This document shows, one piece after another, positions 6,865 through 26,882 of a stretch of DNA of 27,113 nt. This stretch comes from Polyangiaceae bacterium LLY-WYZ-15_(1-7) (lineage in GTDB: Bacteria; Myxococcota_A; Polyangia; Polyangiales; Houyiibacteriaceae). How positions within the stretch are numbered: position 1 is the stretch's first letter; each line of letters begins with the position of its first letter. The translations under genes were made by a program, and so were the position numbers. Below the pieces are notes generated by a model that saw only the letters and a program-made list of their open reading frames with translations, did not search any database and was not told the DNA's origin. Where the stretch lies: the NCBI GenBank assembly GCA_031800675.1, contig DAPKRU010000126.1, positions 1-27,113 of the forward strand, in the 5' to 3' direction.

Positions 6865-7761
6865 TCACATGCCGTCGGGCAGCCGGATGCGGTTCAGCAG
6901 CAGCCGGGTCAGGAGCGCCGCCTGCGCGCCCGTCAGCGTGAGCTCGCCGAGGAGCGTGCTCTCTTCGCGCCGTAGGGTGATGCTCTCGAGCGCGCTCGCC
7001 AGCCCCGCGAGCGCGAGCACCGGCATCCGCGCGGCCGCCTCGATGCGCCGCTCGGCCATCGCCTTCGCCCGCTCCGCCTGCTCCGCGTCCGGATACGCAC
7101 CGCGAAAGGAGAGCGCCATGGCCGGCGGCGCCTCGCCCTGCGTCGGCGCCACCCGGAGCCGCGCCTCGAAGCGTTCCGGCATCAGGGAGCTCCGGGCGTA
7201 GCGCCGCCGGGAGGGCTCGGCGCGCAGGGCGGCGAGATCCTCGCCCGGTCGCCAGAAGGCCTCGAGCGTCGCGTCGGGGCGCAGCCAGGGGAGGGCGCCC
7301 GGCGCCACGCTCACGACCCGGTGCGGGTGGTCGGCCCGCGCCAGCGGCGGCTCCCGCCAGCCCGGCACCTCGCGCCAGCCGTCTCCCCGCGCGCCCAGGG
7401 GAGCCATCGCGTCGAGCCCCGGCCGCACGTCGTCGTCGTGCGTCGTCACCATCACCCAGTCCCAGCCGAAGGTGACGAGGGCCACGTAGATCGTCTCCGC
7501 CTCGAAGGGGTCGAGGCGCGGGTCGGCGAGGAGCGCCGCGATGTCCGGGCGCCGCTCGCGGTAGTAGCTCTCGGCCTGCGCGAGGGCCGGCGCGCAGGCC
7601 GGGCTCGCCTCGCAGGCGCTCACGTCGACCCAGAGCCGCGAGCCGAGCTCGGGGGGCGCGGGCCAGGTCTGGGGCAGCGGGGCCGGCGCTGGCGTGCGCA
7701 CGGCCACCGGCGCCACCGGCGGCGGCGCGCTCTCGGCGCTGCCGCCGCAGGCCGCCAGCAT
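6865..7761 (-). CDS. Hypothetical protein, possibly a lipoprotein (start unresolved)
   Basis: Minus ORF 6865..8232. Its upstream part is antisense to tlyA and unlikely to be coding. A signal-peptide-like RRAAALAALMLAACGG segment sits near 7740-7790, but no in-frame ATG or GTG is upstream of it. Confidence 0.35.
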   Translation of the reverse strand: MLAACGGSAESAPPPVAPVAVRTPAPAPLPQTWPAPPELGSRLWVDVSACEASPACAPALAQAESYYRERRPDIAALLADPRLDPFEAETIYVALVTFGWDWVMVTTHDDDVRPGLDAMAPLGARGDGWREVPGWREPPLARADHPHRVVSVAPGALPWLRPDATLEAFWRPGEDLAALRAEPSRRRYARSSLMPERFEARLRVAPTQGEAPPAMALSFRGAYPDAEQAERAKAMAERRIEAAARMPVLALAGLASALESITLRREESTLLGELTLTGAQAALLTRLLLNRIRLPDGM

Positions 7762-7820: not shown

Positions 7821-8565
7821 GATGGCGAAGAAGGTCCGGGCCGACGTCCTCCTGCACGAGCGCGGGCTCGCGCCGAGCCGTTCCCGCGCGCAGGCGCTGA
7901 TCCTCGCCGGCAAGGTCTACGTCGGCGAGCAGCGCGTGGAGAAGGCCGGCGAGCGCCTCGCGTCCGACGTCGAGCTCGTCGTGCGCGGCACCGACAACCC
8001 CTACGTCTCCCGCGGGGGCCTCAAGCTCCAGGGCGCCCTCGACGCCTTCGCCCTCGATCCGGCCGGCCTCGTCGCCGCCGACTTCGGCGCCTCCACCGGC
8101 GGCTTCACCGATTGCCTGCTCCAGCGCGGCGCGGCGAAGGTCTACGCGATCGACGTCGGGTACGGTCAGCTGCATCCGAAGCTCCGGAACGACGCACGCG
8201 TCGTCGTCATGGAGCGTACCAACGCGCGCCACCTGAAGGCCGGCGACCTGCCCGATCCCATCGATCTCGTCGTCATCGACGCCTCCTTCATCTCACTCCG
8301 GAAGCTCCTCCCCGCGGCCGTCGCGCTGCTGCGCCCGGGGGGCGAGGTCGTCGCGATGGTGAAGCCGCAGTTCGAGGTCGGCCGCCGCGAGGTCAGCAAG
8401 ACGAGCGGCGTCGTCCGGGACCCGGCGCTCCGCGCGAAGGCCATCGACGCCGTCGCCGCCGAGGCCGCCGCGCTCGGCCTCGAGGAGGTCGCCCGCGCCG
8501 ACGCGCCCATCAAGGGCCCGAAGGGCAACCACGAAGCCTTCCTGCGTCTCCGCGCACGCGCCTGA
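7821..8565 (+). CDS. tlyA: TlyA-family rRNA 2'-O-methyltransferase (hemolysin A family)
   Basis: MAKKVRADVLLHERGLAPSRSRAQALILAGKV is the S4 domain. FtsJ-like methyltransferase motifs (AADFGASTGGFTDCLLQRGA, VIDASFISL) follow. Confidence 0.85.
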
Positions 8566-8831
8566 CTCCGCCGCGCTTCGAAGGGGGCGACGCCGCGCCG
8601 ACTGCCCGCTCGTGGGGCGCGTGTCGATGGGCGGGCCGGGTGGGCGAGGTCCACCCCACGAAGCGGAGGGAGCCCCCGGCGAGAAGAGCTGGCGCCTGCC
8701 GTTCGCGGAGCGGGACGTCGAGCGGATCCCCGGAGCGGATCGCTGGAGGGACTCCGACCCGCGGCGCGGCGCCTCCCGTCCTCGACCGCCGGGGCGGCCT
8801 CACGCAGCCGGCTCGGCGCCGCGGCGATCGA

Positions 8832-8905
8832 GGTCGGGCGCTGGTTCCGGCGCGTGGATTCGAACCACGATTCGCGGATTCAAAGTCCGCTGTCCTGCCA
8901 TTAGA
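8832..8905 (-). tRNA. tRNA-Gln (anticodon TTG)
   Basis: Acceptor TCCGGCG/CGCCGGA pairs 7/7. T-arm CGTGG-TTCGAAT-CCACG. Anticodon arm GCGGA-CTTTGAA-TCCGC. CCA is encoded. Confidence 0.8.
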
Positions 8906-9043
8906 CGACGCCGGAGAGAGTGGCGCGGCCGGGCCGCGCTCGGATGTCGTGCACATACCACGGGCGCGGCGGCCGAGCCACGAAGGCCCCGCCGCCGGAT
9001 TGCCCCTTTCGCCGCCCGCGCCGCGCGGTATGCTCGGCGCCCC

Positions 9044-9742
9044 ATGGCCACCGCGCGAACGCTCGAGCTCACGGACCCGATCAAGCGCCGCCTGCTGCAC
9101 CTGCGCTACGTGAGCGGCACGAAGACCGACCCGACGCTCGACGCGGCCCTCGTCGAGGACGTCGAGAAGACCCTCGGCCTGAAGCTCGGCGACAACCTGC
9201 TCGCGCTCCTCGCGAACGGCGACGTCGCCCTCGAGGGCTTCGACGTGCGCCTGCAGAACGTCGTCTCGCTGACCAAGGAGCTCCACGCGAGCGGCGGCCC
9301 GCGCGGCATGGTCGGCCTCGGGCGCGACCCGGGCGGCGACGTGCTCGTGGCGGCGCCCCTCGGCGGGAAGGGTGTCGCCTTCTTCGACACGCGCGACCGC
9401 TCGATCGACGCCGTGCCTCTCGAGGCGTGGCTCGACGAGCTGGTGGGCACGCAGCTCGAGCAGCTCCGCGAGGACGAGTCGGACGACAAGGCGCGCGCGT
9501 TCAAGTCCGTGCACGACGAGGACCTCGGGGGCTTCCGGCCGGCGCTCGTCGTGGACGAGACGCCCGCCAAGCGGGTCTCGCACCCGAAGTTCGGCGGCGG
9601 CGCGATCCTGCGCGAGCTGGACGGCGGCGCGAAGCTCGAGGTGCGCTTCGACGACGGATCGAAGCGCACGCTGCTCGCGCGCTTCCTCACCCGCCAGGGC
9701 GGCGGGGAGGAACCTTCGGGGGACGCGGGCGCGGAGGCCTGA
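9044..9742 (+). CDS. Hypothetical protein with a C-terminal UvrD-C/DUF3553-like motif and a possible SMI1/KNR4 (SUKH)-like N-region
   Basis: The C-terminus HPKFGGGAILRELDGGAKLEVRFDDGSKRTLLARFL resembles the helicase C-terminal Tudor-like motif. The N-terminus has a VEKTLGLKLGDNLLALLANGD stretch reminiscent of SUKH immunity proteins. It is the only plus-strand gene inside the tRNA array. Confidence 0.5.
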   Translation: MATARTLELTDPIKRRLLHLRYVSGTKTDPTLDAALVEDVEKTLGLKLGDNLLALLANGDVALEGFDVRLQNVVSLTKELHASGGPRGMVGLGRDPGGDVLVAAPLGGKGVAFFDTRDRSIDAVPLEAWLDELVGTQLEQLREDESDDKARAFKSVHDEDLGGFRPALVVDETPAKRVSHPKFGGGAILRELDGGAKLEVRFDDGSKRTLLARFLTRQGGGEEPSGDAGAEA

Positions 9743-9912
9743 GGAGGCCGGCGAGGAAGCTCGAGCGTGGAGGCTCGGCGCCGCCTCGCCCCGGCGGACG
9801 TGCCGGCCGCCGCCCTGTTCGAGAGCGGGAGGGCCGGAGCAGGTCGACCGAGCGGGCAGCCCGAGCGTGTCTGCTCCATGAGGCGCGGCGAGCCCGGACG
9901 GTTCGCGCGGCG

Positions 9913-9986
9913 TGGTGCGAGAAGCGGGACTCGAACCCACATCTTCGGCGTGGCGCACCGGTGTCCTGCCGTTGGACGATTCTCGC
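9913..9986 (-). tRNA. tRNA-Gly-like (anticodon GCC), non-canonical anticodon loop
   Basis: Acceptor GCGAGAA/TTCTCGC 7/7. T-arm GTGGG-TTCGAGT-CCCGC. Anticodon loop GCGCCAC has C at position 33 and a 27:43 C-A mismatch. CCA is encoded. Confidence 0.5.
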
Positions 9987-10016
9987 GGAGGCGCGGCCCG
10001 GAGCGCGGGCCGCGGG

Positions 10017-10088
10017 AGCGACGAGCGGGAGTCGAACCCACATCTCCGACATGGCCAGCCGGTGTCTTGTCCATTGGACGATCGTCGC
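10017..10088 (-). tRNA. tRNA-Gly-like (anticodon GCC), non-canonical anticodon loop
   Basis: Acceptor GCGACGA/TCGTCGC 7/7. T-arm GTGGG-TTCGACT-CCCGC. Anticodon arm CCGGC-TGGCCAT-GTCGG with G at position 33. Confidence 0.5.
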
Positions 10089-10184
10089 AGACGCGCCTCC
10101 GAAGAGGCGCGGTGCCTCGCCTCCCCCCGCGGGTGCGAGGAGGGGCGCGGCGTGGCCGCTGGAGCAGCCGGGAGGAACGACGAG

Positions 10185-11015
10185 TCAGCGCTCGTCTTCC
10201 AGGAGCTCGAGGTCCTTCAGGCCGACCACGAAGCGCCCGCCGGAGCGGGCCATGGTCGCGAGGGTCTCGAGCTGGCGAAGCTTCAGCAGGGCCGGGTGCG
10301 CGGCGAGGGCCTCGGCCTGCTCGACCTCGGCCCGGAGCGCGACGCGCTGGCGTTCCAGCTCGGCCGCCGAGCGCTCCTTCTCCGCCTCGAGCTCGAGGTG
10401 GAGCCGCTCGCGCTCGGCCTCGAGGCGACGCCGCTGCGCCTCCTCGTCGGCCCGGGCGGCCAGCTTGCGGGCCTCGATGTCCTTGCGCTGCTGGATGAGC
10501 TTCGCCTCCGCGCGGCGCTCGGTCTCGAGGACCTGGTTCATGATCGTCTTGAGGTTCCCCGGGAAGACGAGATCCTTCACGTCCGCCCGGTGGATCTCGA
10601 CGCCGTAGCCCTGCGCCGCGTCCTTGACGGTCTCGCGGACCGCGTCCGAGATCTCGTTGCGGTCGCTGAGGATCGCGTCGAGGTCGCGGCTCGCGAGGAA
10701 GCGGCGCGCAGCGAGCTGCACGTCCTCGTAGATGCGCGCCTCGTAGTCGGCGACGTGGTGCTTGGCGGCGACCGGGTCGACGACCTCGAAGTAGACGAGG
10801 AGCGAGACGCGGATCGCGACCTTGTCGCGGGTCAGGATCTCCTGGCCCTTGATGACGAGGGAGCGCTCGCGGAGGTCGACGAGGTCGACGCGGCGGACCT
10901 TGCGGTCGAAGAGGCCGCCGCCCAGGGGATGGCGGCCGGGGGGGAGGGCGTCCTCGTAGACGCCGTCCACGTAGAGGAGCCCGACGTGGGCGTTCGGAAC
11001 GACGAAGTGCGACAT
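10185..11015 (-). CDS. SPFH/band-7 (stomatin/prohibitin-like) domain protein
   Basis: Start MSHFVVPNAHVGLLYVDGVY (cat at 11013-11015) is preceded by a GGAGGTG RBS. The SPFH core is ILTRDKVAIRVSLLVYFEVVDP. The C-terminus is a coiled coil rich in E/R/A. Confidence 0.8.
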   Translation of the reverse strand: MSHFVVPNAHVGLLYVDGVYEDALPPGRHPLGGGLFDRKVRRVDLVDLRERSLVIKGQEILTRDKVAIRVSLLVYFEVVDPVAAKHHVADYEARIYEDVQLAARRFLASRDLDAILSDRNEISDAVRETVKDAAQGYGVEIHRADVKDLVFPGNLKTIMNQVLETERRAEAKLIQQRKDIEARKLAARADEEAQRRRLEAERERLHLELEAEKERSAAELERQRVALRAEVEQAEALAAHPALLKLRQLETLATMARSGGRFVVGLKDLELLEDER

Positions 11016-11191
11016 GGTGCACCTCCTGGGGAAAGGGGTGGAAAGGGAGGCCGAGCGCCTACGCAGTGGCAAGACGTAGAACGGGGAGCTCCGGCGGGAC
11101 GCGCCGGAGGGGCCGGACCAGTACGAGTGGCCTGATCTCTTGGAAGGAGAGACTCGCTCCGGCCCCGCTACTTCCATGGGGCGCTCGGCGG

Positions 11192-11262
11192 TGCGGTGAG
11201 GGGGAATCGAACCCCCGTCTCCAGGATGGGACTCTGGTGTCGTGCCGTTGGACCATCACCGC
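11192..11262 (-). tRNA. tRNA-Gly (anticodon CCC)
   Basis: Acceptor GCGGTGA/TCACCGC 7/7. T-arm GGGGG-TTCGATT-CCCCC. Anticodon loop GTCCCAT with a 31:39 mismatch. Confidence 0.6.
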
Positions 11263-11351
11263 AGGCGGGGTGCCCCGGAGGCGGGTGCACCCCTCATCGC
11301 TCCTCCGCACGAGCTCCGGTGCCGCCCACCGAAGGAAACAGAGGACCGGGG

Positions 11352-11381
11352 TCGCGACGCCGTCGTCAGCAGAGGCGTCGC
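11352..11381 (-). terminator. GC-rich hairpin (9-bp stem CGCGACGCC/GGCGTCGCG) immediately 3' of tRNA-Ser(GCT); possible terminator or processing structure
   Basis: Read directly. On the minus strand it is followed by tcctctgtttcctt. Confidence 0.3.
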
Positions 11382-11385
11382 GCCG

Positions 11386-11471
11386 GCGGAGAACGGAGGT
11401 CTCGAACCCCACACCCACGCGGGTGCGCACGGTTTAGCAAACCGGCCTGGCCGCCCGGCCAGTTCGTTCTC
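11386..11471 (-). tRNA. tRNA-Ser (anticodon GCT), type II (long variable arm)
   Basis: Acceptor GGAGAAC/GTTCTCC 7/7. T-arm TGGGG-TTCGAGA-CCTCC. Anticodon loop TTGCTAA. Variable-arm helix CACCC-GCGT-GGGTG. Confidence 0.65.
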
Positions 11472-11514
11472 CAGAGGCCTCGAGGGAGGCCGAGGCGCGC
11501 CCGAAGGCGCACCG

Positions 11515-11606
11515 GCACGCCGGCCAGGAATCGAACCCGACTCACCGGATTTGGAATCCGAGCTGCTCCCAGAGCACCGACGTATGAGCTCCCGAGCGAC
11601 CCGGCG
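11515..11606 (-). tRNA. tRNA-Trp-like (anticodon CCA), atypically long (92 nt) with about 20 extra nt between the acceptor and anticodon arms
   Basis: Acceptor ACGCCGG/CCGGCGT 7/7. T-arm TCGGG-TTCGATT-CCTGG. Anticodon arm TCGGA-TTCCAAA-TCCGG. The D-region is 39 nt instead of about 19. Confidence 0.4.
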
Positions 11607-11755
11607 TCGTTCGACGGGGCCGTCGTGATCGTCTCGAGCGACGCGAGCGCCTGCGCCCGCGCCGGCCCTCGTGGACCGCCCCCACGCTCTCGTTCGAAGA
11701 GCGTGCGAGCGAAGCGAGGGCGAGGGGGAGAGCGGCCCCTCCATGAACGCGGCGG

Positions 11756-11842
11756 CGGAGAGCAGAGGACTCGCACCCCACGCCCGCGAAGGCGCGCACC
11801 GCTTTCGAGGCGGGCTCGGTGGCCTGCACCGATTTGCTCTCC
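11756..11842 (-). tRNA. tRNA-Ser-like (anticodon CGA), type II, with a non-canonical T-loop TGCGAGT
   Basis: Acceptor GGAGAGC/GCTCTCC 7/7. Anticodon arm CCGC-CTCGAAA-GCGG. The T-loop has G at position 55, so it may be a pseudogene. It shares architecture with the Ser(GCT) tRNA at 11386-11471. Confidence 0.45.
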
Positions 11843-11850
11843 AGGGTCGG

Positions 11851-11934
11851 CGGAAGCGAGAGGACTCGAACCCCACGCCCATGGGCGCGCATCCGCTTCC
11901 AACGGAGCCTGGTCCCCCGACCAGCTTCGCTTCC
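11851..11934 (-). tRNA. tRNA-Ser (anticodon GGA), type II
   Basis: Acceptor GGAAGCG/CGCTTCC 7/7. T-loop TTCGAGT. Anticodon loop TTGGAAG. Variable-arm helix CGCCC-AT-GGGCG. Confidence 0.65.
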
Positions 11935-11959
11935 ATCGATCGCGCTCCGCAGAGCGCGG

Positions 11960-12031
11960 TCGGGGTGGCAGGAGTCGAACCTGCACCTTCCCGGCCCCCA
12001 GCCGGGCGTCTTCCCCCAAGACTTCACCCCG
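11960..12031 (-). tRNA. tRNA-Pro (anticodon GGG)
   Basis: Acceptor CGGGGTG/CACCCCG 7/7. D-stem GTCT/AGAC. Anticodon arm CCCGG-CTGGGGG-CCGGG with G37. T-arm GCAGG-TTCGACT-CCTGC. Confidence 0.75.
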
Positions 12032-12185
12032 AGGGCTCCGCCGGCGCCGGCGGAGGGGCGTCACCCGCTGGGCGACGCGAAGAAAGGACCGGGAGGGAGG
12101 CGCGCGTTCCCGCGGCGTTCGTTGGCGCGCCCCCCTCCCGGAGGGCCCGCGCCGGGACCATTCCCGACGCGGAAGGCGCTCCCCA

Positions 12186-12704
12186 TCAGGCGAGCGCCGA
12201 GGTCCAGGACATCCACGTCCGCCAGTGCTGCGGGATGTGCGAGACGTCGAGGTGCAGCGTGCCCCCGGGCAGCCACTTCGGCCGACGCGGCGCCTTGCGG
12301 AGCGGCATCTTCGCCTGCTGCGGCGTCCGGTCCGCCTTCCGCTCGTTGCAGCGGCGGCACGCGGTCACGATGTTCTCCCACGTCGTGGTGCCGCCCTGGG
12401 CGCGCGGCAGGACGTGGTCGTACGTCAGGTCACGCATCGGCAGCTTCTCGCCGCAGTACTGGCAGCTGAAGCCGTCCCGCAGGAAGACGTTCAGGCGCGA
12501 GAACTTGATGCGGTGCTGGCGGAAGCGGTTCCCCTGGCGGAGGCGCACGACGGCGGGCATGCGCATCGCGAGGCTGACGGAACGGATGACGTCCTCGTAC
12601 TCCTCCACGACGTCGGCCTTGCCCACGTACAGGAGCGTGACGGCCTTCTGCCAGGGGACGATTTGGTGCGGTTGGTAGCCTTGGTCGAGAACGAGCGTGC
12701 GCAT
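12186..12704 (-). CDS. HNH endonuclease embedded in the tRNA array
   Basis: HNH motif: DHVLPRAQGGTTTWENIVTACRRCNERKADR with upstream Cys pair CQYCGEKL. Start MRTLVLDQGYQ (cat at 12702-12704) is preceded by an AGGAGAT RBS. Confidence 0.8.
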   Translation of the reverse strand: MRTLVLDQGYQPHQIVPWQKAVTLLYVGKADVVEEYEDVIRSVSLAMRMPAVVRLRQGNRFRQHRIKFSRLNVFLRDGFSCQYCGEKLPMRDLTYDHVLPRAQGGTTTWENIVTACRRCNERKADRTPQQAKMPLRKAPRRPKWLPGGTLHLDVSHIPQHWRTWMSWTSALA

Positions 12705-12796
12705 GGCGAGATCTCCTGCGTGCCTGCGGCACGCGGTGGTGGACGAGACGGGTCGCCCCCGCGAAGGGGGACCCGCTGGCCGACCATTCGGCCGAG

Positions 12797-12826
12797 CGAC
12801 GCGCGGCGATCTCGTGCGCGTCGCGG
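12797..12826 (-). terminator. Perfect 9-bp inverted repeat GCGACGCGC...GCGCGTCGC abutting the 3' end of tRNA-Glu(CTC) and upstream of the HNH gene
   Basis: Read directly. Function unknown (terminator, processing or regulatory). Confidence 0.3.
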
Positions 12827-12899
12827 CGACGGATACGGGACTCGAACCCGTGTTTCCTGGCTGAGAACCAAGCGTCCTGGGCCACTAGACGAATCCGTC
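12827..12899 (-). tRNA. tRNA-Glu (anticodon CTC)
   Basis: Acceptor GACGGAT/ATCCGTC 7/7. Anticodon arm CTTGG-TTCTCAG-CCAGG. T-arm ACGGG-TTCGAGT-CCCGT. Confidence 0.7.
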
Positions 12900-12921
12900 G
12901 GGAGGCGGCTCGCGCCGCCGG

Positions 12922-13004
12922 TACCAGGGACAGGAGTCGAACCTGCATGCCTCGAGGGGCCACACGACCTCAGCGTGCTGCGTTTACCGTTTCGCCACCC
13001 TGGC
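12922..13004 (-). tRNA. tRNA-Leu (anticodon GAG), type II
   Basis: Acceptor GCCAGGG/CCCTGGT (G1-U72). Anticodon arm GCACG-CTGAGGT-CGTGT. Long variable arm CCTC-GAGG. T-arm GCAGG-TTCGACT-CCTGT. Confidence 0.65.
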
Positions 13005-13063
13005 GTGGCACGCCCGGTCGGGGCGCGTGTTCGTTCGCGGCGCAGAGCGCGCCGCCGCGTCGG

Positions 13064-13136
13064 TACGGGATCAGGGGATCGAACCCTGCTCCTCCGCCTC
13101 GTCATGGCGGCGTCGTCCCCAGACGACTCATCCCGT
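13064..13136 (-). tRNA. tRNA-Val (anticodon GAC)
   Basis: Acceptor ACGGGAT/ATCCCGT 7/7. D-stem GTCG/CGAC. Anticodon arm CCGCC-ATGACGA-GGCGG. T-arm CAGGG-TTCGATC-CCCTG. Position 8 is G. Confidence 0.7.
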
Positions 13137-13284
13137 GTGATCCGCGCCGGAGCTCGCCTCCGACGGGGGAGGGGCGAAGCTCAGCCCCGAGCGAGCGGTC
13201 CGAGAGCGGGAAGAGGAGGGCGGCCCGGTGTCTGCGGGCGCGCCCGTGGCGAGCGATGGCGCCGTGTCGTGCGAAGCGACCGCG

Positions 13285-13438
13285 CCCGCATCTGCCCGCT
13301 CGGCCCGGCCTCGCAGGCCGCGCTCGCCCGGACTCGAAGAACGGGGAGGCGCGTGCGAGCGAAGCGAGCGCGAGGGAGGGGGACCCGGCGGAGCTCGCCT
13401 CCGACGGGGGAGGGGCGAAGCTCAGCCCCTCCCATCAA
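13285..13438. repeat. Roughly 150-bp segmental repeat, copy 1 (GCCCGCATCTGCCCGCTCGGCC...GAGCTCGCCTCCGACGGGGGAGGGGCGAAGCTCAGCCCCTCC)
   Basis: Near-identical copy at 13775-13928. The 40-bp 3' core hairpin element GGAGCTCGCCTCCGACGGGGGAGGGGCGAAGCTCAGCCCC also occurs at 13149-13189. Confidence 0.75.
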
Positions 13439-13444
13439 TACCGG

Positions 13445-13526
13445 TACCGGAGACAGGAGTCGAACCTGCATGCCTCGAGGGCCACGCGTTCTGAGCGCGC
13501 TACGTATACCGTTCCGCCACTCCGGT
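13445..13526 (-). tRNA. tRNA-Leu (anticodon CAG), type II
   Basis: Acceptor ACCGGAG/CTCCGGT 7/7. Anticodon arm GCGCG-CTCAGAA-CGCGT. Paralogous to Leu(GAG), sharing the same D and T arms. Confidence 0.7.
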
Positions 13527-13549
13527 GCATGGACGGCCGAAGCCGTCGG

Positions 13550-13621
13550 CGACGCGTACGGGAATCGAACCCGTCTCACCCCGGAGACAACGGGGCTGCA
13601 TACCCAGATGCACAACGCGCC
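13550..13621 (-). tRNA. tRNA-Asp (anticodon GTC)
   Basis: Acceptor GGCGCGT/ACGCGTC (one G-U). D-stem TGCA/TGCA. Anticodon arm CCCCG-TTGTCTC-CGGGG. T-arm ACGGG-TTCGATT-CCCGT. Confidence 0.75.
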
Positions 13622-13650
13622 ATGATCGATGAGCTCGCTCGCGCGAGCGG

Positions 13651-13730
13651 TGCTGGAGGCAGGAGTCGAACCTGCACGCCCGAGGGCCACGTGGTTTGAG
13701 CACGCTGCGTCTCCCGTTCCGCCACTCCAG
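13651..13730 (-). tRNA. tRNA-Leu (anticodon CAA), type II
   Basis: Acceptor GCTGGAG/CTCCAGC 7/7. Anticodon loop CTCAAAC. Long variable arm. T-arm GCAGG-TTCGACT-CCTGC. Confidence 0.7.
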
Positions 13731-13774
13731 CGCCGAGCCGCCGCGGACCGCGTCGTCGCCACCGGGGCTCGGGC

Positions 13775-13928
13775 GGCCGCCCCCGCATCTGCCCGCTCGG
13801 CCCGCCTCGCAGGCCGCGTTCGCCCGGACTCGAAGAACGGGGTGGTGCGTGCGAGCGAAGCGAGCGCGAGGGAGGGGGACCCGTCGGAGCTCGCCTCCGA
13901 CGGGGGAGGGGCGAAGCTCAGCCCCTCC
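13775..13928. repeat. Roughly 150-bp segmental repeat, copy 2
   Basis: Aligns with 13285-13438 with a few substitutions. Confidence 0.75.
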
Positions 13929-13938
13929 AAGAACGCCG

Positions 13939-13986
13939 CGCCACGTGGTTTGAGCACGCTGCGTCTCCCGTTCCGCCACTCCAGCG
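13939..13986 (-). pseudogene. Truncated tRNA-Leu(CAA) fragment: the 5' half (acceptor through anticodon arm and part of the variable arm) is duplicated without the T-arm or 3' acceptor
   Basis: ccacgtggtttgagcacgctgcgtctcccgttccgccactccagcgcc is identical to 13688-13733. Its downstream flank gccgagccgccgcggaccgcgtcgtcgccacc is also duplicated. Confidence 0.7.
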
Positions 13987-14089
13987 CCGAGCCGCCGCGG
14001 ACCGCGTCGTCGCCACCTGGGCTCGGGGGCTCCGGCTCGCAGACGGACCGGCTGCTTCCGCGAAGGTCGGCGCCTGGGCGTCGACCTCG

Positions 14090-14162
14090 GTACGGGGCCA
14101 GGGAATCGAACCCTGCTCGTCCGCCTCGTGACGGCGGCGTCGTCCCCAGACGACTCGCCCCG
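14090..14162 (-). tRNA. tRNA-Val (anticodon CAC)
   Basis: Acceptor GCGGGGC/GCCCCGT (G1-U72). Anticodon arm CCGCC-GTCACGA-GGCGG. Paralogous to Val(GAC). Confidence 0.7.
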
Positions 14163-14163
14163 C

Positions 14164-14233
14164 ATGGCTGCGGAGAGACTCGAACTCTCGCGGCCGCCCG
14201 TATGAGAGGCGTCGGCCGTCCTCGGCCCGCAGC
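14164..14233 (-). tRNA. tRNA-Met (anticodon CAT), short (70 nt) with a compact D-arm
   Basis: Acceptor GGCTGCG/CGCAGCC 7/7. Anticodon arm CGCCT-CTCATAC-GGGCG. T-arm GAGAG-TTCGAGT-CTCTC. Separated from the previous tRNA by 1 nt. Confidence 0.55.
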
Positions 14234-14269
14234 CGTTCGTGATGGCGGGTCGCCGCGAAGCGACCGCCG

Positions 14270-14342
14270 GCGCTTCCGCCAGGATTCGAACCTGGAACTC
14301 GGGTTTCGTAGACCCGCGTGATGATCCGTTTCACCACGGAAG
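14270..14342 (-). tRNA. tRNA-Arg (anticodon ACG)
   Basis: Acceptor GCTTCCG/CGGAAGC 7/7. D-stem GTGA/TCAC. Anticodon arm CGGGT-CTACGAA-ACCCG. T-arm CCAGG-TTCGAAT-CCTGG. Confidence 0.75.
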
Positions 14343-14435
14343 CAGGCGCCGCCCGCGGGCGGCACGAAGAGTGGGCGAGGGCGAGCGCACGGCACCGCGC
14401 GCCGAACGCGCGGGCGGTGATCGTCTCCTCGCCGG

Positions 14436-14503
14436 AGTGCCGAGTGGGAGTCGAACCCACCTTCGCCGGGTTGCAGCCGGCGGCGTTCCCAGAACACCGG
14501 CAC
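14436..14503 (-). tRNA. tRNA-Cys (anticodon GCA), compact (68 nt)
   Basis: Acceptor GTGCCGG/TCGGCAC (one G-U). Anticodon arm GCCGG-CTGCAAC-CCGGC. T-arm GTGGG-TTCGACT-CCCAC. Very short D-arm. Confidence 0.55.
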
Positions 14504-14510
14504 GCGATGG

Positions 14511-14582
14511 CGCTCCCCCCAGGGCTCGAACCTGGAACGCGGGCTCCGCACGCCCGAGTGATTCCGCTTTCACCAGAGAAGC
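14511..14582 (-). tRNA. tRNA-Arg (anticodon GCG)
   Basis: Acceptor GCTTCTC/GGGGAGC (two G-U). D-stem GTGA/TCAC. Anticodon arm CGGGC-GTGCGGA-GCCCG. T-arm CCAGG-TTCGAGC-CCTGG. Confidence 0.55.
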
Positions 14583-14644
14583 ATCGGCACCCTCGCTCCG
14601 ACTCGGCCGGATGGAGAGCGCACGCGAAGGCGCCGAAGCGCCGG

Positions 14645-14718
14645 TCCGTGTGGACGGATTCGAACCGCCGGCCTCCCCGACCCGAACGGGGCGCTCCTCC
14701 AGCCTGAGCTACACACGG
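14645..14718 (-). tRNA. tRNA-Pro (anticodon CGG)
   Basis: Acceptor CCGTGTG/CACACGG 7/7. D-stem GCTC/GAGC. Anticodon arm CCCCG-TTCGGGT-CGGGG. T-arm GGCGG-TTCGAAT-CCGTC. Confidence 0.75.
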
Positions 14719-14780
14719 AGGATCTCTCTCGAGCGCGGCGCCGAAGCTCCGCCATGAAGAAGCGGAGCCGAGCTCCGCGG

Positions 14781-14851
14781 CACTCCCGCCACGATTCGAA
14801 CGTGGACTTCAGGCTCCGGAAACCTGCGTGATTCCCTTTCACTACGGGAGC
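14781..14851 (-). tRNA. tRNA-Arg (anticodon CCG)
   Basis: Acceptor GCTCCCG/CGGGAGT (G1-U72). D-stem GTGA/TCAC. Anticodon arm CAGGT-TTCCGGA-GCCTG. T-arm CCACG-TTCGAAT-CGTGG. Confidence 0.7.
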
Positions 14852-14855
14852 GTGG

Positions 14856-14930
14856 TGACGCGTGGGGGATTCGAACCCCCGCCTCCCCGGCTGAAAACCG
14901 GGTGTCCTGGTGCCGCTAGACGAACGCGCC
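14856..14930 (-). tRNA. tRNA-Glu (anticodon TTC)
   Basis: Acceptor GGCGCGT/ACGCGTC. Anticodon arm CCCGG-TTTTCAG-CCGGG. T-arm GGGGG-TTCGAAT-CCCCC. Confidence 0.7.
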
Positions 14931-14942
14931 GGAATCGTCTGG

Positions 14943-15014
14943 AGCCCATGCCGGGACTCGCACCCGGCTCTCCGCCTTACGAGGGCGGCGCGTCGCTACC
15001 TACGCTTCGAGGGC
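14943..15014 (-). tRNA. tRNA-Thr-like (anticodon CGT), possible pseudogene
   Basis: Anticodon arm CCGCC-CTCGTAA-GGCGG. The T-loop is TGCGAGT (non-canonical). The acceptor GCCCTCG/CATGGGC has two adjacent mismatches. Paralog of the Thr(GGT) tRNA at 15138-15209. Confidence 0.4.
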
Positions 15015-15137
15015 AGGAGCGCGTCTTCCGACCCCGAAGCCCCCGCCGGAGCGGAGCCGCGGAGCCGGAAGGCGCGCTGGGAGAGGTCGGCGCCCCTCCC
15101 GCGGGAACGAACAACGAACGACAACTCGAGAGATGGA

Positions 15138-15209
15138 GCCCCCGCCGGGAATCGAACCCGGCTCTCCGCCTTACCGGGGCGGTGCGTCGCCGACTACGCA
15201 TCGTGGGCA
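15138..15209 (-). tRNA. tRNA-Thr (anticodon GGT), C at position 33
   Basis: Acceptor GCCCACG/CGGGGGC (one mismatch). D-stem GCGT/ACGC. Anticodon arm CCGCC-CCGGTAA-GGCGG. T-arm CCGGG-TTCGATT-CCCGG. Confidence 0.55.
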
Positions 15210-15236
15210 TGGCGCGGCGCCGGGCGCCGTCGCGGT

Positions 15237-15308
15237 GGAGATGGCGGGAATCGAACCCGCGGCCTCAGCCGTGCCATGGCTGCGCTCTCCCCCTGAGCTA
15301 CATCCCCT
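15237..15308 (-). tRNA. tRNA-Ala (anticodon GGC)
   Basis: Acceptor GGGGATG/CATCTCC with G3-U70 (Ala identity pair). D-stem GCTC/GAGC. Anticodon arm CAGCC-ATGGCAC-GGCTG. T-arm GCGGG-TTCGATT-CCCGC. Confidence 0.75.
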
Positions 15309-15336
15309 CTCGAACGCGCCCCGTTCGGCGCGCGGT

Positions 15337-15409
15337 GGAACCGGCGGGACTCGAACCCGCAGTCTCCGGCTTGCGACACCGGCGCCCTCCCCGTTGGGCC
15401 ACGATCCCT
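15337..15409 (-). tRNA. tRNA-Ala (anticodon CGC)
   Basis: Acceptor GGGATCG/CGGTTCC with G3-U70. D-stem GCCC/GGGC. Anticodon arm CCGGT-GTCGCAA-GCCGG. T-arm GCGGG-TTCGAGT-CCCGC. Confidence 0.7.
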
Positions 15410-15438
15410 CGCGAACGCTCCCCTCGCGGGGCGCGCGG

Positions 15439-15510
15439 TCCACTCGGGAAGAATCGAACTTCCGTTTCCCGCGTATCAGACGGGCGTCTTCACCATTGGA
15501 CGACGAGTGG
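15439..15510 (-). tRNA. tRNA-Ile (anticodon GAT)
   Basis: Acceptor CCACTCG/CGAGTGG 7/7. Anticodon arm CCCGT-CTGATAC-GCGGG. T-arm GGAAG-TTCGATT-CTTCC. Confidence 0.7.
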
Positions 15511-15514
15511 GTGG

Positions 15515-15586
15515 CGCCGCGTACGGGAATCGAACCCGTCTCACTCCGTAGACAGCGGAGCTGGTACGCCAGCTTCATCACGCGGC
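15515..15586 (-). tRNA. tRNA-Asp (anticodon GTC), second divergent copy
   Basis: Acceptor GCCGCGT/ACGCGGC 7/7. Anticodon arm CTCCG-CTGTCTA-CGGAG. T-arm ACGGG-TTCGATT-CCCGT. The D-region is unusual. Confidence 0.6.
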
Positions 15587-15633
15587 AGCGTCGGGCGGGC
15601 GGTGCGAGGCCTTCAGCCCCTCCGCCCACGCGG

Positions 15634-15706
15634 TGGCTCGAGCAGGGATCGAACCTGCACCTTCCGGGCTTCAACCGGACGCGCTCACCAGATGCGCTTT
15701 CGAGCC
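15634..15706 (-). tRNA. tRNA-Phe (anticodon GAA)
   Basis: Acceptor GGCTCGA/TCGAGCC 7/7. D-stem GCGC/GCGC. Anticodon arm TCCGG-TTGAAGC-CCGGA. T-arm GCAGG-TTCGATC-CCTGC. Confidence 0.75.
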
Positions 15707-15733
15707 GTCGCGGCGACCGGAGTCGCCGCCCGG

Positions 15734-15804
15734 CGGGGAGGTGCGGAGTCGAACCGCAACAACCCCGGTTAACGGCCGGGGCGCTCTCCCTGAGCTACCT
15801 CCCC
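15734..15804 (-). tRNA. tRNA-Asn (anticodon GTT), C at position 33
   Basis: Acceptor GGGGAGG/CCTCCCC 7/7. D-stem GCTC/GAGC. Anticodon arm CCCGG-CCGTTAA-CCGGG. T-arm TGCGG-TTCGACT-CCGCA. Confidence 0.6.
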
Positions 15805-15853
15805 ACGCACCGGGCTCCCGGTGCGCGCGCTCGCTCCGCGGAGCGAGCCGTGG

Positions 15854-15926
15854 GGTGACCGGGGGGAATCGAACCCCGACGCCGACTCGGGTCACGGCCG
15901 AGCGGACAGACCTCTGCGCGGTCACC
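15854..15926 (-). tRNA. tRNA-His (anticodon GTG) with encoded G-1 and C73; C at position 33
   Basis: Acceptor GTGACCG/CGGTCAC 7/7, plus an extra 5' G opposite discriminator C (His identity). Anticodon arm CTCGG-CCGTGAC-CCGAG. T-arm CGGGG-TTCGATT-CCCCC. Confidence 0.65.
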
Positions 15927-16082
15927 ACGTCGCAGGCCGCCGAGCCGAGCTCGAAGACCTGCTCTCCGGCGCCCCAGCTCGTCTGCGAGCCGAAGCGCCG
16001 GAGTGACGTGAGGCGGGCGCGACACCGCCCCACGTCCCCCGATTGTCAAAGACCTCCCGCCACCCCCGCTGGGGTGACGCGG

Positions 16083-16154
16083 TACCGGACCAGGGAGTCG
16101 AACCCCGACCTCGTGGTTCAGAGCCACGCGTCCTCGCCGTTGGACCAGTCCGGT
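16083..16154 (-). tRNA. tRNA-Gln (anticodon CTG)
   Basis: Acceptor ACCGGAC/GTCCGGT 7/7. Anticodon arm CGTGG-CTCTGAA-CCACG. T-arm CGGGG-TTCGACT-CCCTG. Confidence 0.75.
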
Positions 16155-16247
16155 GTGTTCTCGAAAGAGCGATGGGAGCCGGGGGCTCCCGGGAGCGGGC
16201 GCAGGGCGCACCTCTCCCGTCGCGTCGCGAGCGGGTCGCGGCGCCGG

Positions 16248-16318
16248 TAGGGCACCAGGGGGTCGAACCCTGATCGACCGGTTAAGAGCCGGCTGCTCTG
16301 CCGTTGAGCTAGTGCCCC
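16248..16318 (-). tRNA. tRNA-Lys (anticodon CTT)
   Basis: Acceptor GGGGCAC/GTGCCCT (G1-U72). D-stem GCTC/GAGC. Anticodon arm GCCGG-CTCTTAA-CCGGT. T-arm CAGGG-TTCGACC-CCCTG. Confidence 0.75.
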
Positions 16319-16409
16319 GTGCCGAGGCCGGGCCTCGGTCTCGTCGTTCGCTCGCGCTCCCCCCACTGGGTCGTCGGAGAACGGGGTCCTCGGAGGGAGC
16401 TCTCGCGGT

Positions 16410-16489
16410 CGGGCAGGAAGGAATCGAACCTCGTGGGCAGAGCCCCGGCGACTTTACAGGCCGCCTGCCGGCCACCGGCGCCTACCCGG
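16410..16489 (-). tRNA. tRNA-Tyr (anticodon GTA), type II
   Basis: Acceptor CGGGTAG/CTGCCCG (one G-U). Anticodon arm GCGGC-CTGTAAA-GTCGC. Long variable arm GGGC-TCT-GCCC. T-arm CGAGG-TTCGATT-CCTTC. Confidence 0.6.
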
Positions 16490-16524
16490 GCGGGGACGGA
16501 AACGAAGACGGGCCACCTGCGCTG

Positions 16525-16552
16525 ACGCAGGCGGCCCGTAAAAGGAGCACGA
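16525..16552 (-). terminator. 12-bp GC hairpin (one A-C mismatch) followed on the minus strand by TCTTCGTTTCC, just upstream of the first array tRNA (Tyr)
   Basis: gggccacctgcg-ctga-cgcaggcggccc read directly. Could be a weak terminator or a processing or insulator structure. Confidence 0.3.
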
Positions 16553-16994
16553 GAGCCTGGCGTCAGTCTGCTGGACACCCTCCACGAAGGGCCGGCGCAC
16601 CGGCCTCCTCGCGCTTCGCCTCTTCCCTCTGTTCCGCGGAGTCGTCCGCAGAATGGGCATCACGTTCGGCGAGAGTGAGCAAACTATGAGTGTTGTGATT
16701 CGATGAAAATAGAGATTGATTCAGCGCGTACGAGTCCCCTCGTCCGGCCCCCCATCGGGGGCTGGGCTGCCTCGAGCTCACCGCGCAGGCCCTCGTTCGA
16801 GGTCGTGCTCGGCCACCGAGGCGCTCGCTCGGGACGCCCGGGATCCGCCCGTCGCGTCTCGAGAGATGACCTCCCGCTGCGTCCATCTCGCTCTCGTTCC
16901 GGCCTCGGCCGGTCGTTCTCCTCTCCTCGTTCGTTCCTCGGGCCGGGGCTCTTCCCCGGCATGCTCTTCGCTTGGGTCGGCGGCCCGGGATCTC

Positions 16995-17050
16995 CAGCCC
17001 AGACTCTCGAGCCCAGACTCTCCAGCCCAGACTCTCCAGCCCAGACACGA
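16995..17050. repeat. Tandem 14-bp repeat (C/G)AGCCCAGACTCTC in 3.5 copies
   Basis: cagcccagactctc, gagcccagactctc, cagcccagactctc, cagcccagacacga read directly. It lies immediately downstream of the minus-strand terminator. Confidence 0.8.
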
Positions 17051-17080
17051 AAAAAGCCGCCGGCGAGGTCGCTGGCGGCT
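17049..17080 (-). terminator. Rho-independent terminator on the minus strand
   Basis: 11-bp stem GCCGCCGGCGA/TCGCTGGCGGC (one G-U) followed on the minus strand by TTTTTTCG (the plus strand shows A6 at 17050-17055). Confidence 0.7.
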
Positions 17081-17121
17081 TCATCCAAACCTACCGGCCA
17101 TGGGCCGGTGTGGTTCCACCG

Positions 17122-17478
17122 CTAGCTGGGGGGACCCTCCTCGAGACGCTCGGCGCTCAGTAGCATGGCGCCGAAATCACTGGCGATCTCGCCAGCCGCC
17201 GGGAGGGAGGCCCCGCCGATATCCTGCTGATTGTCGGTCGACGGACGACGAAAGCCGTCCTTCTTCTCCGCGCGATAGGCGAAGCACGTGGCCGCCGAGG
17301 CAGGAGCAGGCGCACAGGCCGACTCCGACCGTCCGAGCGAGACCGCCGTCCAGGCGCCCGACATGATCGGGCTCCCCGACGGATCCACGACCCGTACCTC
17401 GACCACGCCGCCGCGGGCATTCCGCGGGGCAGCCTGCCAGGAGCAGGTCGGCCGGTGGGTATGGGCTTGCCTCGTCAT
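17122..17478 (-). CDS. Small hypothetical protein (118 aa), apparently leaderless, in a self-contained unit of promoter, ORF and terminator
   Basis: ATG (cat at 17476-17478) lies 9 nt after a TAGCTA -10 box. GC3-rich codons. The stop is 32 nt before the terminator. No recognisable domain. Confidence 0.35.
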   Translation of the reverse strand: MTRQAHTHRPTCSWQAAPRNARGGVVEVRVVDPSGSPIMSGAWTAVSLGRSESACAPAPASAATCFAYRAEKKDGFRRPSTDNQQDIGGASLPAAGEIASDFGAMLLSAERLEEGPPS

Positions 17479-17487
17479 CGTGCTCTC

Positions 17488-17516
17488 TAGCTAACGCACC
17501 CCTCTGGGGGTGTCAA
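17488..17516 (-). promoter_or_regulatory. Sigma70-like promoter on the minus strand: TTGACA-17bp-TAGCTA
   Basis: Read as the reverse complement of 17488-17516 (tgtcaa at 17511-17516, tagcta at 17488-17493), within the only AT-richer patch of this intergenic region. Confidence 0.45.
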
Positions 17517-24412: not shown

Positions 24413-24767
24413 TCGCCGCCTGAACCTCTCGCACCACCATCCCGACAGGTCCCGCCTCCGAGCCAACGCGCCGCGAGCGGGAAACCCCCGGGAGACATGG
24501 AGCCCACCCCGCTAGATGACGAACCGCCCATAGACGAGAGCTGCCAGGAAGACCGCCGGGTCCGCGCGCTCACCGAGCCCGCCCGCGACTGAGCACTCTC
24601 GAAGCCCCTTCCGAAACGTTCCCCAGGGAACAGGCCAGACCCGAGGTGGGTCGGCCCGGCTCGGAGGGGCTTTCGTGCGTCTTCCGCCCTCTCTCGTCTC
24701 CGGCTTCGACTCCTGGCTCTACGCCCCTTCCTTCGGCTGCACCCGACCCGACGAATCGGAGATCATC

Positions 24768-26882
<2,115 letters not shown>

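Follow-up and report, generated by a model that had tools for sequence, protein, structure and literature searches.

The 27,113-nucleotide (nt) contig DAPKRU010000126.1 of Polyangiaceae bacterium LLY-WYZ-15_(1-7), analysed here at its full length as the window, has a G+C content of 72% and carries a long tRNA gene array on its minus strand. Within this array lies a tRNA-Trp(CCA) gene that a first-pass annotation of the letters alone had described as 92 nt long with an oversized D-region. ARAGORN and the alignment to the Rfam tRNA family RF00005 agree that the locus is a tRNA gene, with the CCA anticodon at 11554-11552, and ARAGORN finds one Trp gene in the array, in agreement with the earlier view that it is the only Trp decoder there. 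Most probably, however, the locus encodes a 68-nt tRNA-Trp(CCA), reading from 11583 to 11516 on the minus strand, that has a small D-arm, and the 24 nt upstream of it are leader. What carries this reading is observed directly: gene boundaries on which two programs agree, orthology, covariation of the small D-arm, and the array context. The parts of the locus, all on the minus strand, are the following.

8842 to 16488, minus strand: tRNA array, with 32 genes at the ARAGORN default and 36 at relaxed thresholds; syntenic arrays occur in the relatives L003, L005 and L007.
11516 to 11583, minus strand: tRNA-Trp(CCA), 68 nt, from A1 to discriminator G73 (ARAGORN, RF00005, eight orthologs, covariation).
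11565 to 11575, minus strand: small D-arm, consisting of a GCTC stem strand, a TGG loop and a GAGC stem strand (ARAGORN structure, folding, stem covariation).
11545 to 11561, minus strand: anticodon arm TCGGA-TTCCAAA-TCCGG, including the anticodon (sequence, ARAGORN, RF00005).
11524 to 11540, minus strand: T-arm TCGGG-TTCGATT-CCTGG, its T-loop invariant across orthologs (sequence, ARAGORN, RF00005).
11514 to 11515, minus strand: encoded C74 and C75; A76 is not encoded, the next base (11513) being G (sequence).
11494 to 11513, minus strand: GC-rich hairpin GGTGCGCC-TTCG-GGCGCGCC, directly after C75 (sequence; it forms in the 201-nt fold).
11584 to 11607, minus strand: the upstream 24 nt, ACGCCGGGTCGCTCGGGAGCTCAT, read as leader; it resembles the first ~20 nt of the tRNA and supplies an alternative acceptor strand.

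From 11607 to 11516 the minus strand reads ACGCCGG GT CGCTCGGGAGCTCAT ACGTCGG T GCTC TGG GAGC AGC TCGGA TTCCAAA TCCGG TGAG TCGGG TTCGATT CCTGG CCGGCGT G, followed by CC and then G. The single 3' acceptor strand, CCGGCGT (11523-11517), has two candidate 5' partners: a distal strand, ACGCCGG (11607-11601), with which it makes seven Watson-Crick pairs, and a proximal strand, ACGTCGG (11583-11577), with which it makes six pairs and one G.U. A gene that starts at the distal strand is the 92-nt model, 11607 to 11516, in which 39 nt (11600-11562) separate the distal acceptor strand from the anticodon stem. The elements on which that model was built are all present, i.e. the perfect 7-base-pair (bp) acceptor, the anticodon arm, the 39-nt gap, and both motifs, GGGAGCTC at 11593-11586 and GGGAGCAGCTC at 11570-11560, but the first-pass coordinates are shifted by one base. 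ARAGORN calls a 70-nt tRNA-Trp(CCA) at 11514-11583, which is the 68 nt plus CC, and this call is unchanged with introns allowed, with relaxed thresholds, and in mitochondrial mode. RF00005 aligns end to end with 11516-11583 (model positions 1-71, 28.8 bits, E = 6.3e-4), and the 92-nt span is not reported in the RF00005 search; RNA families other than tRNA gave only weak Rfam matches at 11250-11860, with E of 1.1 or higher. Both programs and eight orthologs start the gene at 11583, so that the length of 92 nt gives way to 68 nt; an alignment with other boundaries than those first drawn is thus largely what was found, though it is not itself a canonical one.

Relatives with syntenic arrays (L003, L005, L007 and L048) have a slipin 72% identical to that of the window; L003 is the Polyangiales chromosome OZ245758.1, of 9.07 Mb. 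A pattern scan for the T-loop plus the 3' acceptor strand added the Kofleriaceae metagenome-assembled genome (MAG) L014 and the stand-alone metagenome genes L019, L023 and L034. The eight aligned Trp tRNAs, which come from metagenome contigs and from marine relatives within the Myxococcota, start with ACG(T/C)CG(G/A), matching window base 11583, and the upstream 24-nt copy is absent before all eight. Bacterial RNase P prefers U at position -1; T stands at -1 in every one of the eight orthologs, and the base at -1 of the distal site is A. In the eight-sequence alignment the 68-nt cloverleaf has 98.8% of its cells paired, whereas sliding the 3' partners leaves 36-46% paired, and both sides change in 9 of 21 pairs, a count that none of 500 shuffles matches. 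The D-stem contributes four of its four pairs to these two-sided changes (GCTC/GAGC, CGTC/GACG, GCGC/GCGC and GCTT/AAGC), CGTC/GACG being found in L014 and GCGC/GCGC in L019 and L034. A 4-bp stem with a UGG loop is common to the window, L014 and L019, with 0-1 nt before the stem and three after it, and the D-loops in the Trp tRNAs of L003, L005, L007 and L048 are of 5-6 nt.

The 68-nt tRNA-Trp is laid out as a 7-bp acceptor, a 1-nt connector, a 4-3-4 D-arm, a 3-nt linker, a 5-7-5 anticodon arm, a 4-nt variable loop, and a 5-7-5 T-arm. The cloverleaf is regular in having the 7-bp acceptor, a 5-bp anticodon stem, a 7-nt anticodon loop in which position 33 is U and position 37 a purine, a 5-bp T-stem and a TTCRANY loop. 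The T-arm had been called canonical and is so: the T-loop TTCGATT is canonical, and the T-stem TCGGG/CCTGG includes two G.U pairs. The identity set of the bacterial tryptophanyl-tRNA synthetase (TrpRS) consists of the CCA anticodon, discriminator G73, and A1-U72, and it is complete here, since A 11583 pairs with T 11517 (A1-U72), G73 is at 11516, and the anticodon is CCA; this set is invariant in 8 of 8 orthologs. A canonical D-arm, taken as connectors U8 and N9, a stem of 3-4 bp and a loop of 7-11 nt with G18 and G19, is not found; the gene has one connector nt, a 4-bp stem and a 3-nt UGG loop in which the GG is kept. The D-region between the acceptor and anticodon stems amounts to 15 nt in the 68-nt gene. 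It is therefore abnormal, as had been claimed, but in being too short (15 nt) and not too long (39 nt): the real anomaly of this tRNA is a D-arm that is too small, not one that is too large.

Set beside canonical tRNA-Trp, the gene has the expected acceptor, anticodon arm, T-arm, A1-U72, G73 and U33/A37, and its acceptor (ACGTCGG/CCGGCGT) and anticodon arm are nearly identical to those of canonical-length marine metagenome Trp tRNAs (L033, L035, L037, L038). It differs in its D-region of 15 nt, where the canonical value is 19 or more, in its 3-nt D-loop, in a single connector that serves for U8 and N9, and in three nt at position 26. Configurations other than 7/5 (8/5, 9/4, 8/4 and 9/3) do not describe the Trp gene, which is 7/5. 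An eight-bp acceptor (8/4) is feasible in the window and in L014 but was rejected because it is not conserved, the possible eighth pair T8.G65 not being kept in L003, L005 and L019 (alignment inspected by eye). For the TTCG-loop hairpin at 11494 to 11513 a role in 3' processing or in stability is likely.

Several observations weigh against the 68-nt gene with its leader. The distal strand pairs better with the 3' acceptor strand than the proximal one does; the score of the tRNA-Trp(CCA) on RF00005 lies under the gathering cut-off of 29 bits; and the 3-nt D-loop together with the single-nt 8/9 connector lies beyond the canonical bacterial range. The 92-mer folded alone favours the extended cloverleaf (-39.0 vs -33.6 kcal/mol) with the distal helix dominant at pair probabilities of 0.6-0.99, the proximal helix having 0, and the minimum-energy fold of a 141-nt RNA contains neither acceptor helix. 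The duplication origin of the upstream 24 nt is not significant after correction for multiple tests, and the same-species contigs, which are >99.9% identical, give no information on selection on this segment. As to the score, the Trp genes of the relatives are also at or under the RF00005 cut-off (29.7 bits in L005 and <29 in the others), so that the low value appears as a trait of the lineage and not as decay specific to the window. As to the folding, the proximal helix is the better one when either is forced in the 141-nt RNA (-54.4 vs -51.1 kcal/mol), and the minimum-energy fold of a 201-nt precursor is the 68-nt cloverleaf, with a pair probability of ~0.7 for the proximal and 0.04 for the distal helix and with the upstream copy sequestered in a leader hairpin. 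Since the preferred fold flips with the length of the context, thermodynamics cannot decide the boundary; a fraction of precursors could misfold, according to these models. Folding and an Infernal alignment had been suggested as checks at the outset, and they part ways: the isolated 92-mer does fold as an extended cloverleaf, but RF00005 aligns 11516-11583 only.

It is unlikely that the gene is a decaying, non-functional copy, i.e. a supernumerary array tRNA with parts of the D-loop and of the variable region gone and with the competing upstream strand as a further impairment. Decay would be in keeping with a score under the Rfam cut-off, with the loss in this species, compared with L003, L005 and L007, of 2 nt from the D-loop and of 2 nt ahead of the T-stem, and with the spacers of this species, which are expanded and carry tRNA fragments, as well as with the poor expression reported for long arrays in the few cases studied (PMC8421152). 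Against decay, two other lineages have this 4-3-4 UGG D-arm with compensating substitutions in the stem; the T-loop, anticodon loop, A1-U72 and G73 are intact; the array, which covers all 20 amino acids, has this as its only Trp gene; and tRNA-Cys keeps the same design across three arrays. A permuted or fused pseudogene, one of the options first listed, comes nearest to the facts in the sense that the upstream 24 nt may be a 5' Trp fragment fused to the gene, but the gene itself is intact and does not have the look of a pseudogene.

A real 92-nt product would use the upstream ACGCCGG as acceptor strand and the upstream GCUC, paired with GAGC, as D-stem, with the proximal copy forming a D-loop hairpin insert of ~28 nt, and is very improbable. 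It has the perfect 7-bp acceptor in its favour, and the isolated 92-mer folds so at -39.0 kcal/mol; the segment is also fixed in seven assemblies of the species, but this fixation carries no weight as the assemblies are near-clonal. Six other same-species assemblies carry an identical Trp region including the upstream 24 nt and are >99.9% identical over the whole array, and the same locus is present in the MAGs GCA_002699025.1 and GCA_002720945.1. The 92-nt form is, moreover, absent from every ortholog, is reported by neither program even with introns allowed, has an A before its distal site where T(-1) is invariant at the proximal site, and is displaced by the proximal helix in the 201-nt context. 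No bacterial tRNA with a D-loop insert of this kind is known to us, and the extended D-arm that had been proposed is possible as a fold but finds no comparative support. Just as little chance is given to a switch in which the 3' strand would pair with the distal or the proximal 5' strand and would so gate tRNA-Trp maturation from the array transcript, the folds differing by only 3-5 kcal/mol with a preference that changes with flanking RNA length, but the distal strand being conserved only within one near-clonal species, its similarity to the tRNA being near chance level, and no ligand or protein site being evident.

An intron or insert was rejected as well: the intron mode of ARAGORN keeps the 70-nt call, and a complete tRNA exists from 11583 onward without any removal. 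In the intron-bearing, split and permuted tRNAs of archaea extra nucleotides may interrupt the D-region, and these need a bulge-helix-bulge and a splicing endonuclease that, to our knowledge, bacteria lack; unlike these archaeal genes, the locus here contains a complete tRNA from which nothing has to be taken out.

For the 68-nt tRNA with its leader the following path is proposed. The array would be transcribed as a precursor in which Trp is joined with neighbouring tRNAs, and RNase P would cut between the conserved U(-1) and A1, i.e. at 11584/11583. Trimming of the 3' side would leave G73-C-C, to which the CCA-adding enzyme would add A76; this addition is suggested because 24 of the 32 array tRNAs encode the discriminator and CC without the A, mostly followed by G, the full CCA being encoded in the other eight. 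TrpRS would then charge the tRNA through A1-U72, G73 and the CCA anticodon for decoding of UGG. The stretch 11584-11607 would be leader in a spacer that has expanded in this species, and may derive by copying and decay from the 5' strands of the acceptor and D-stem of the tRNA. The alternative 92-nt cloverleaf arises because the ACGCCGG of this leader can pair with the 3' acceptor strand.

Three further features of the array, all on the minus strand, are listed next.

11608 to 11753, minus strand: expanded spacer from tRNA-Ser(CGA) to tRNA-Trp, with a spacer-repeat copy at 11701-11718.
11754 to 11842, minus strand: tRNA-Ser(CGA), the 5'-side neighbour, found by ARAGORN at the relaxed threshold only; the order Ser(CGA)-Trp is kept in L005.
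13940 to 13985, minus strand: 46-nt 5' fragment that matches exactly the beginning of the complete tRNA-Leu(CAA) gene (13731-13649).

The upstream segment aligns to the first 20 nt of the tRNA over ACG.CGG, GCTC and GGGAGC. When the upstream 40 nt are aligned locally to the first 30 nt of the tRNA, the score is reached in 34 of 5000 shuffles and by ~1% of genomic 40-mers (p about 0.006); when the same alignment is made across the 32 array tRNAs, Trp is best, tied with Tyr, and p is about 0.2 corrected for 32 tests. ACGCCGG occurs 20 times in the window, counting both strands, and GGAGCTC 36 times, one of these (13149-13155) within 35 nt upstream of tRNA-Val(GAC); because GGAGCTC is common and also precedes tRNA-Val(GAC), the repeated motif is weak as evidence of duplication. 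There are no further copies of the 24 nt in the window at up to 3 mismatches, and the junction sequence is found only in same-species contigs. A mobile insert was rejected on these grounds, and the inserted element of the first-pass annotation, together with the second copy that a search for it might have yielded, is not borne out, the 24 nt being unique in the window and absent from all relatives. Judging from sequence, the segment may be a decayed partial duplicate or may have arisen by chance, the two being about equally probable, and under either origin it is outside the conserved gene. For the most part the 92-nt gene is an artefact of where its boundary was drawn: when a GC-rich spacer contains a second acceptor strand upstream, whether a decayed copy or a chance match, a tRNA can look expanded.

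The spacer between Ser(CGA) and Trp is ~170 nt here and 2-9 nt in L003 and L005. An array-specific spacer repeat with the core CTCGCTTCGCTCGCACGC has three copies in the array (11701-11718, 13351-13368 and 13847-13864, minus strand) vs 0.04 expected by chance. The Leu(CAA) fragment lies in a strain-specific 254-nt insertion (13732-13985, minus strand) and is followed by a spacer-repeat copy; the insertion is absent from five of the five same-species assemblies that have contigs spanning the site (L001, L002 and L008-L010). An extra tandem tRNA-Pro(CGG), as a 118-nt unit, is present in L002 (6596-6789) and in L009. In L007 a pair of complete Trp genes stands in tandem at a distance of 92 nt (1401-1473 and 1492-1566); the upstream copy has A and not U at position 33 (loop CACCAAA) and receives no call from ARAGORN. 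The tandem Trp genes of L007, the extra Pro(CGG) of L002 and L009, and the Leu(CAA) fragment here make a partial duplication plausible.

The array as a whole has 4.2 tRNA genes per kb (32 genes in 7.65 kb). Two further sets of genes belong to it.

11103-11176, 11385-11472, 11754-11842 and 15851-15925, minus strand: the relaxed-threshold genes Gly(TCC), Ser(GCT), Ser(CGA) and His(GTG), respectively (ARAGORN).
12186 to 12704, minus strand: HNH endonuclease gene inside the array (Pfam HNH_5, 5.5e-17), in the same place in L003, L005 and L007.

With the four relaxed-threshold genes, 20 of 20 amino acids are covered. The RF00005 gathering threshold passes 21 of the 32 ARAGORN genes, and standard cut-offs thus lose a third of the genes in such arrays; the tRNAs of this array are atypical in general. 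The anticodons start with G or C almost throughout and most U34 anticodons are absent, from which it follows that further tRNA genes must exist elsewhere in the genome. A gene for a slipin (SPFH) protein sits inside the array along with that for the HNH endonuclease, and the window also has genes for a Ser/Thr kinase, a glycosyltransferase, an HD protein, SSB, TlyA and an EF-G paralog. The order HNH, tRNAs, slipin, TlyA is kept in the relatives L003, L005, L007 and L048, with arrays of 29-38 tRNAs, and the array is absent beside a 67%-identical slipin in L012. A phage or plasmid origin of the array was considered and rejected, in that a megablast of 8000-17500 gave no phage match and plasmid matches to the TlyA gene only, and pattern scans of viral contigs for Trp and Cys gave no relatives of the array.

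A tRNA array unit has been defined as at least 20 tRNA genes at a density of at least 2 genes per kb (Tran et al. 2016, PMC4758250), and the 32 genes over 8842-16488 fall within this definition. The term L-array stands for a long array that keeps to one strand and has a homing endonuclease beside it (Santamaria-Gomez et al. 2021, PMC8421152); here likewise the tRNA genes share the minus strand, and the HNH gene at 12186-12704 is of the homing type. L-arrays are further described as additional to a housekeeping tRNA set and as spread by horizontal transfer. As in known arrays there are duplications, insertions and deletions between strains, and G34/C34 anticodons predominate. Unlike known arrays, the host is a marine, Polyangiales-like myxobacterium, of a phylum not listed in the surveys of PMC4758250 and PMC8421152, and several members have very small D-arms. 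The array is syntenic across several related genomes of marine Polyangiales-like Myxococcota, and so looks inherited within the group and not recently acquired.

The small D-arm of tRNA-Trp is not alone in the array, as the following genes share or approach it.

14434-14503 in the window, minus strand: tRNA-Cys(GCA) with a small D-arm, with counterparts in L003 (5076-5146) and L005 (5342-5412) (sequence comparison).
14165-14234, 15851-15925 and 15732-15804, minus strand: tRNA-Met, tRNA-His and tRNA-Asn, respectively, with short D-regions of 16-17 nt.

tRNA-Cys(GCA) has the D-arm plan of Trp, i.e. the connector T, GTTC-TGG-GAAC and a 3-nt linker, and this plan is conserved in three arrays. The Met, His, Asn and Tyr tRNAs of the array have D-regions of 16-18 nt, and the D-stem of tRNA-Met covaries between arrays (GCCG/CGGC, GTCG/CGAC and GCCC/GGGC). 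Small D-arms have precedents elsewhere: tRNA-Pyl has a 5-nt D-loop and one connector base. Reduced D-arms are likewise found in mitochondrial tRNAs and in tRNA-Sec, where a 6-bp stem carries a 4-nt loop (PMC7609411). The Trp gene resembles such tRNAs in its small D-loop and shortened connector with the remaining cloverleaf kept, and is unlike them in its canonical T-loop, the GG in its D-loop, the 7/5 configuration, a sense anticodon and its location on a bacterial chromosome. A shallow literature search found no report of a short-D-arm design in ordinary bacterial elongator tRNAs.

Variants of tRNA-Trp(CCA) that read UGA include the Hirsh mutation G24A, A9C, and changes to a 4-bp anticodon stem or at 27:43 (PMC13092985). 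The same hinge region (positions 9-12, 23-26 and 27:43) is altered here, with position 9 absent, a 3-nt linker at 26, and U.G at 27:43; in the L019-type relative the 27:43 position is an A.A mismatch. The resemblance to UGA-reading Trp variants is a lead only, by analogy, and nothing in the present data shows read-through. It is improbable, though conceivable, that the small-D-arm tRNAs of these myxobacterial arrays (Trp and Cys, in which UGG closes a 4-bp stem, and Met, His and Tyr, with similarly reduced D-regions) form a functional conserved class in which the Trp hinge might permit UGA read-through and the upstream strand might limit maturation. Natural bacterial tRNAs with D-arms this close to the minimum size would be of use in work on tRNA folding, on RNase P and on recognition by synthetases, and in engineering tRNAs.

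The L019-type tRNA-Trp (L019 at 235-305, L023, L034 and L044) is a stand-alone gene with a small D-arm, and its A.A mismatch atop the anticodon stem leaves a 4-bp stem. Its context is chromosomal, with 66-73% G+C, beside methyltransferase, RNase H and MoeA genes, and a gene of this type is also carried on one predicted viral contig. For tRNA-Tyr(GTA) at 16407-16488 (minus strand) ARAGORN draws an 8-bp acceptor, a 4-bp T-stem, a 6-bp anticodon stem and a tiny TGG D-loop, and on this model it may be a non-7/5 tRNA; its ortholog in L003 (1132-1213) passes the Rfam tRNA-Sec model with 52.6 bits at a cut-off of 47.

Translation-factor genes accompany the arrays, as in the short RF-1/PCRF open reading frames of L003 (8069-8515) and L048 (594-1133). 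The EF-G paralog is inside the array in L005 (7205-9298) and in the window lies at 24675-26882, ~8 kb from the array; TlyA always adjoins the array. A tRNA with an irregular anticodon loop in L003 (2741-2810) scores 52.4 bits, and the L005 array includes a tRNA with the anticodon TTA (7033-7105; 48.6 bits on the Rfam tRNA model) that would read the UAA stop codon.

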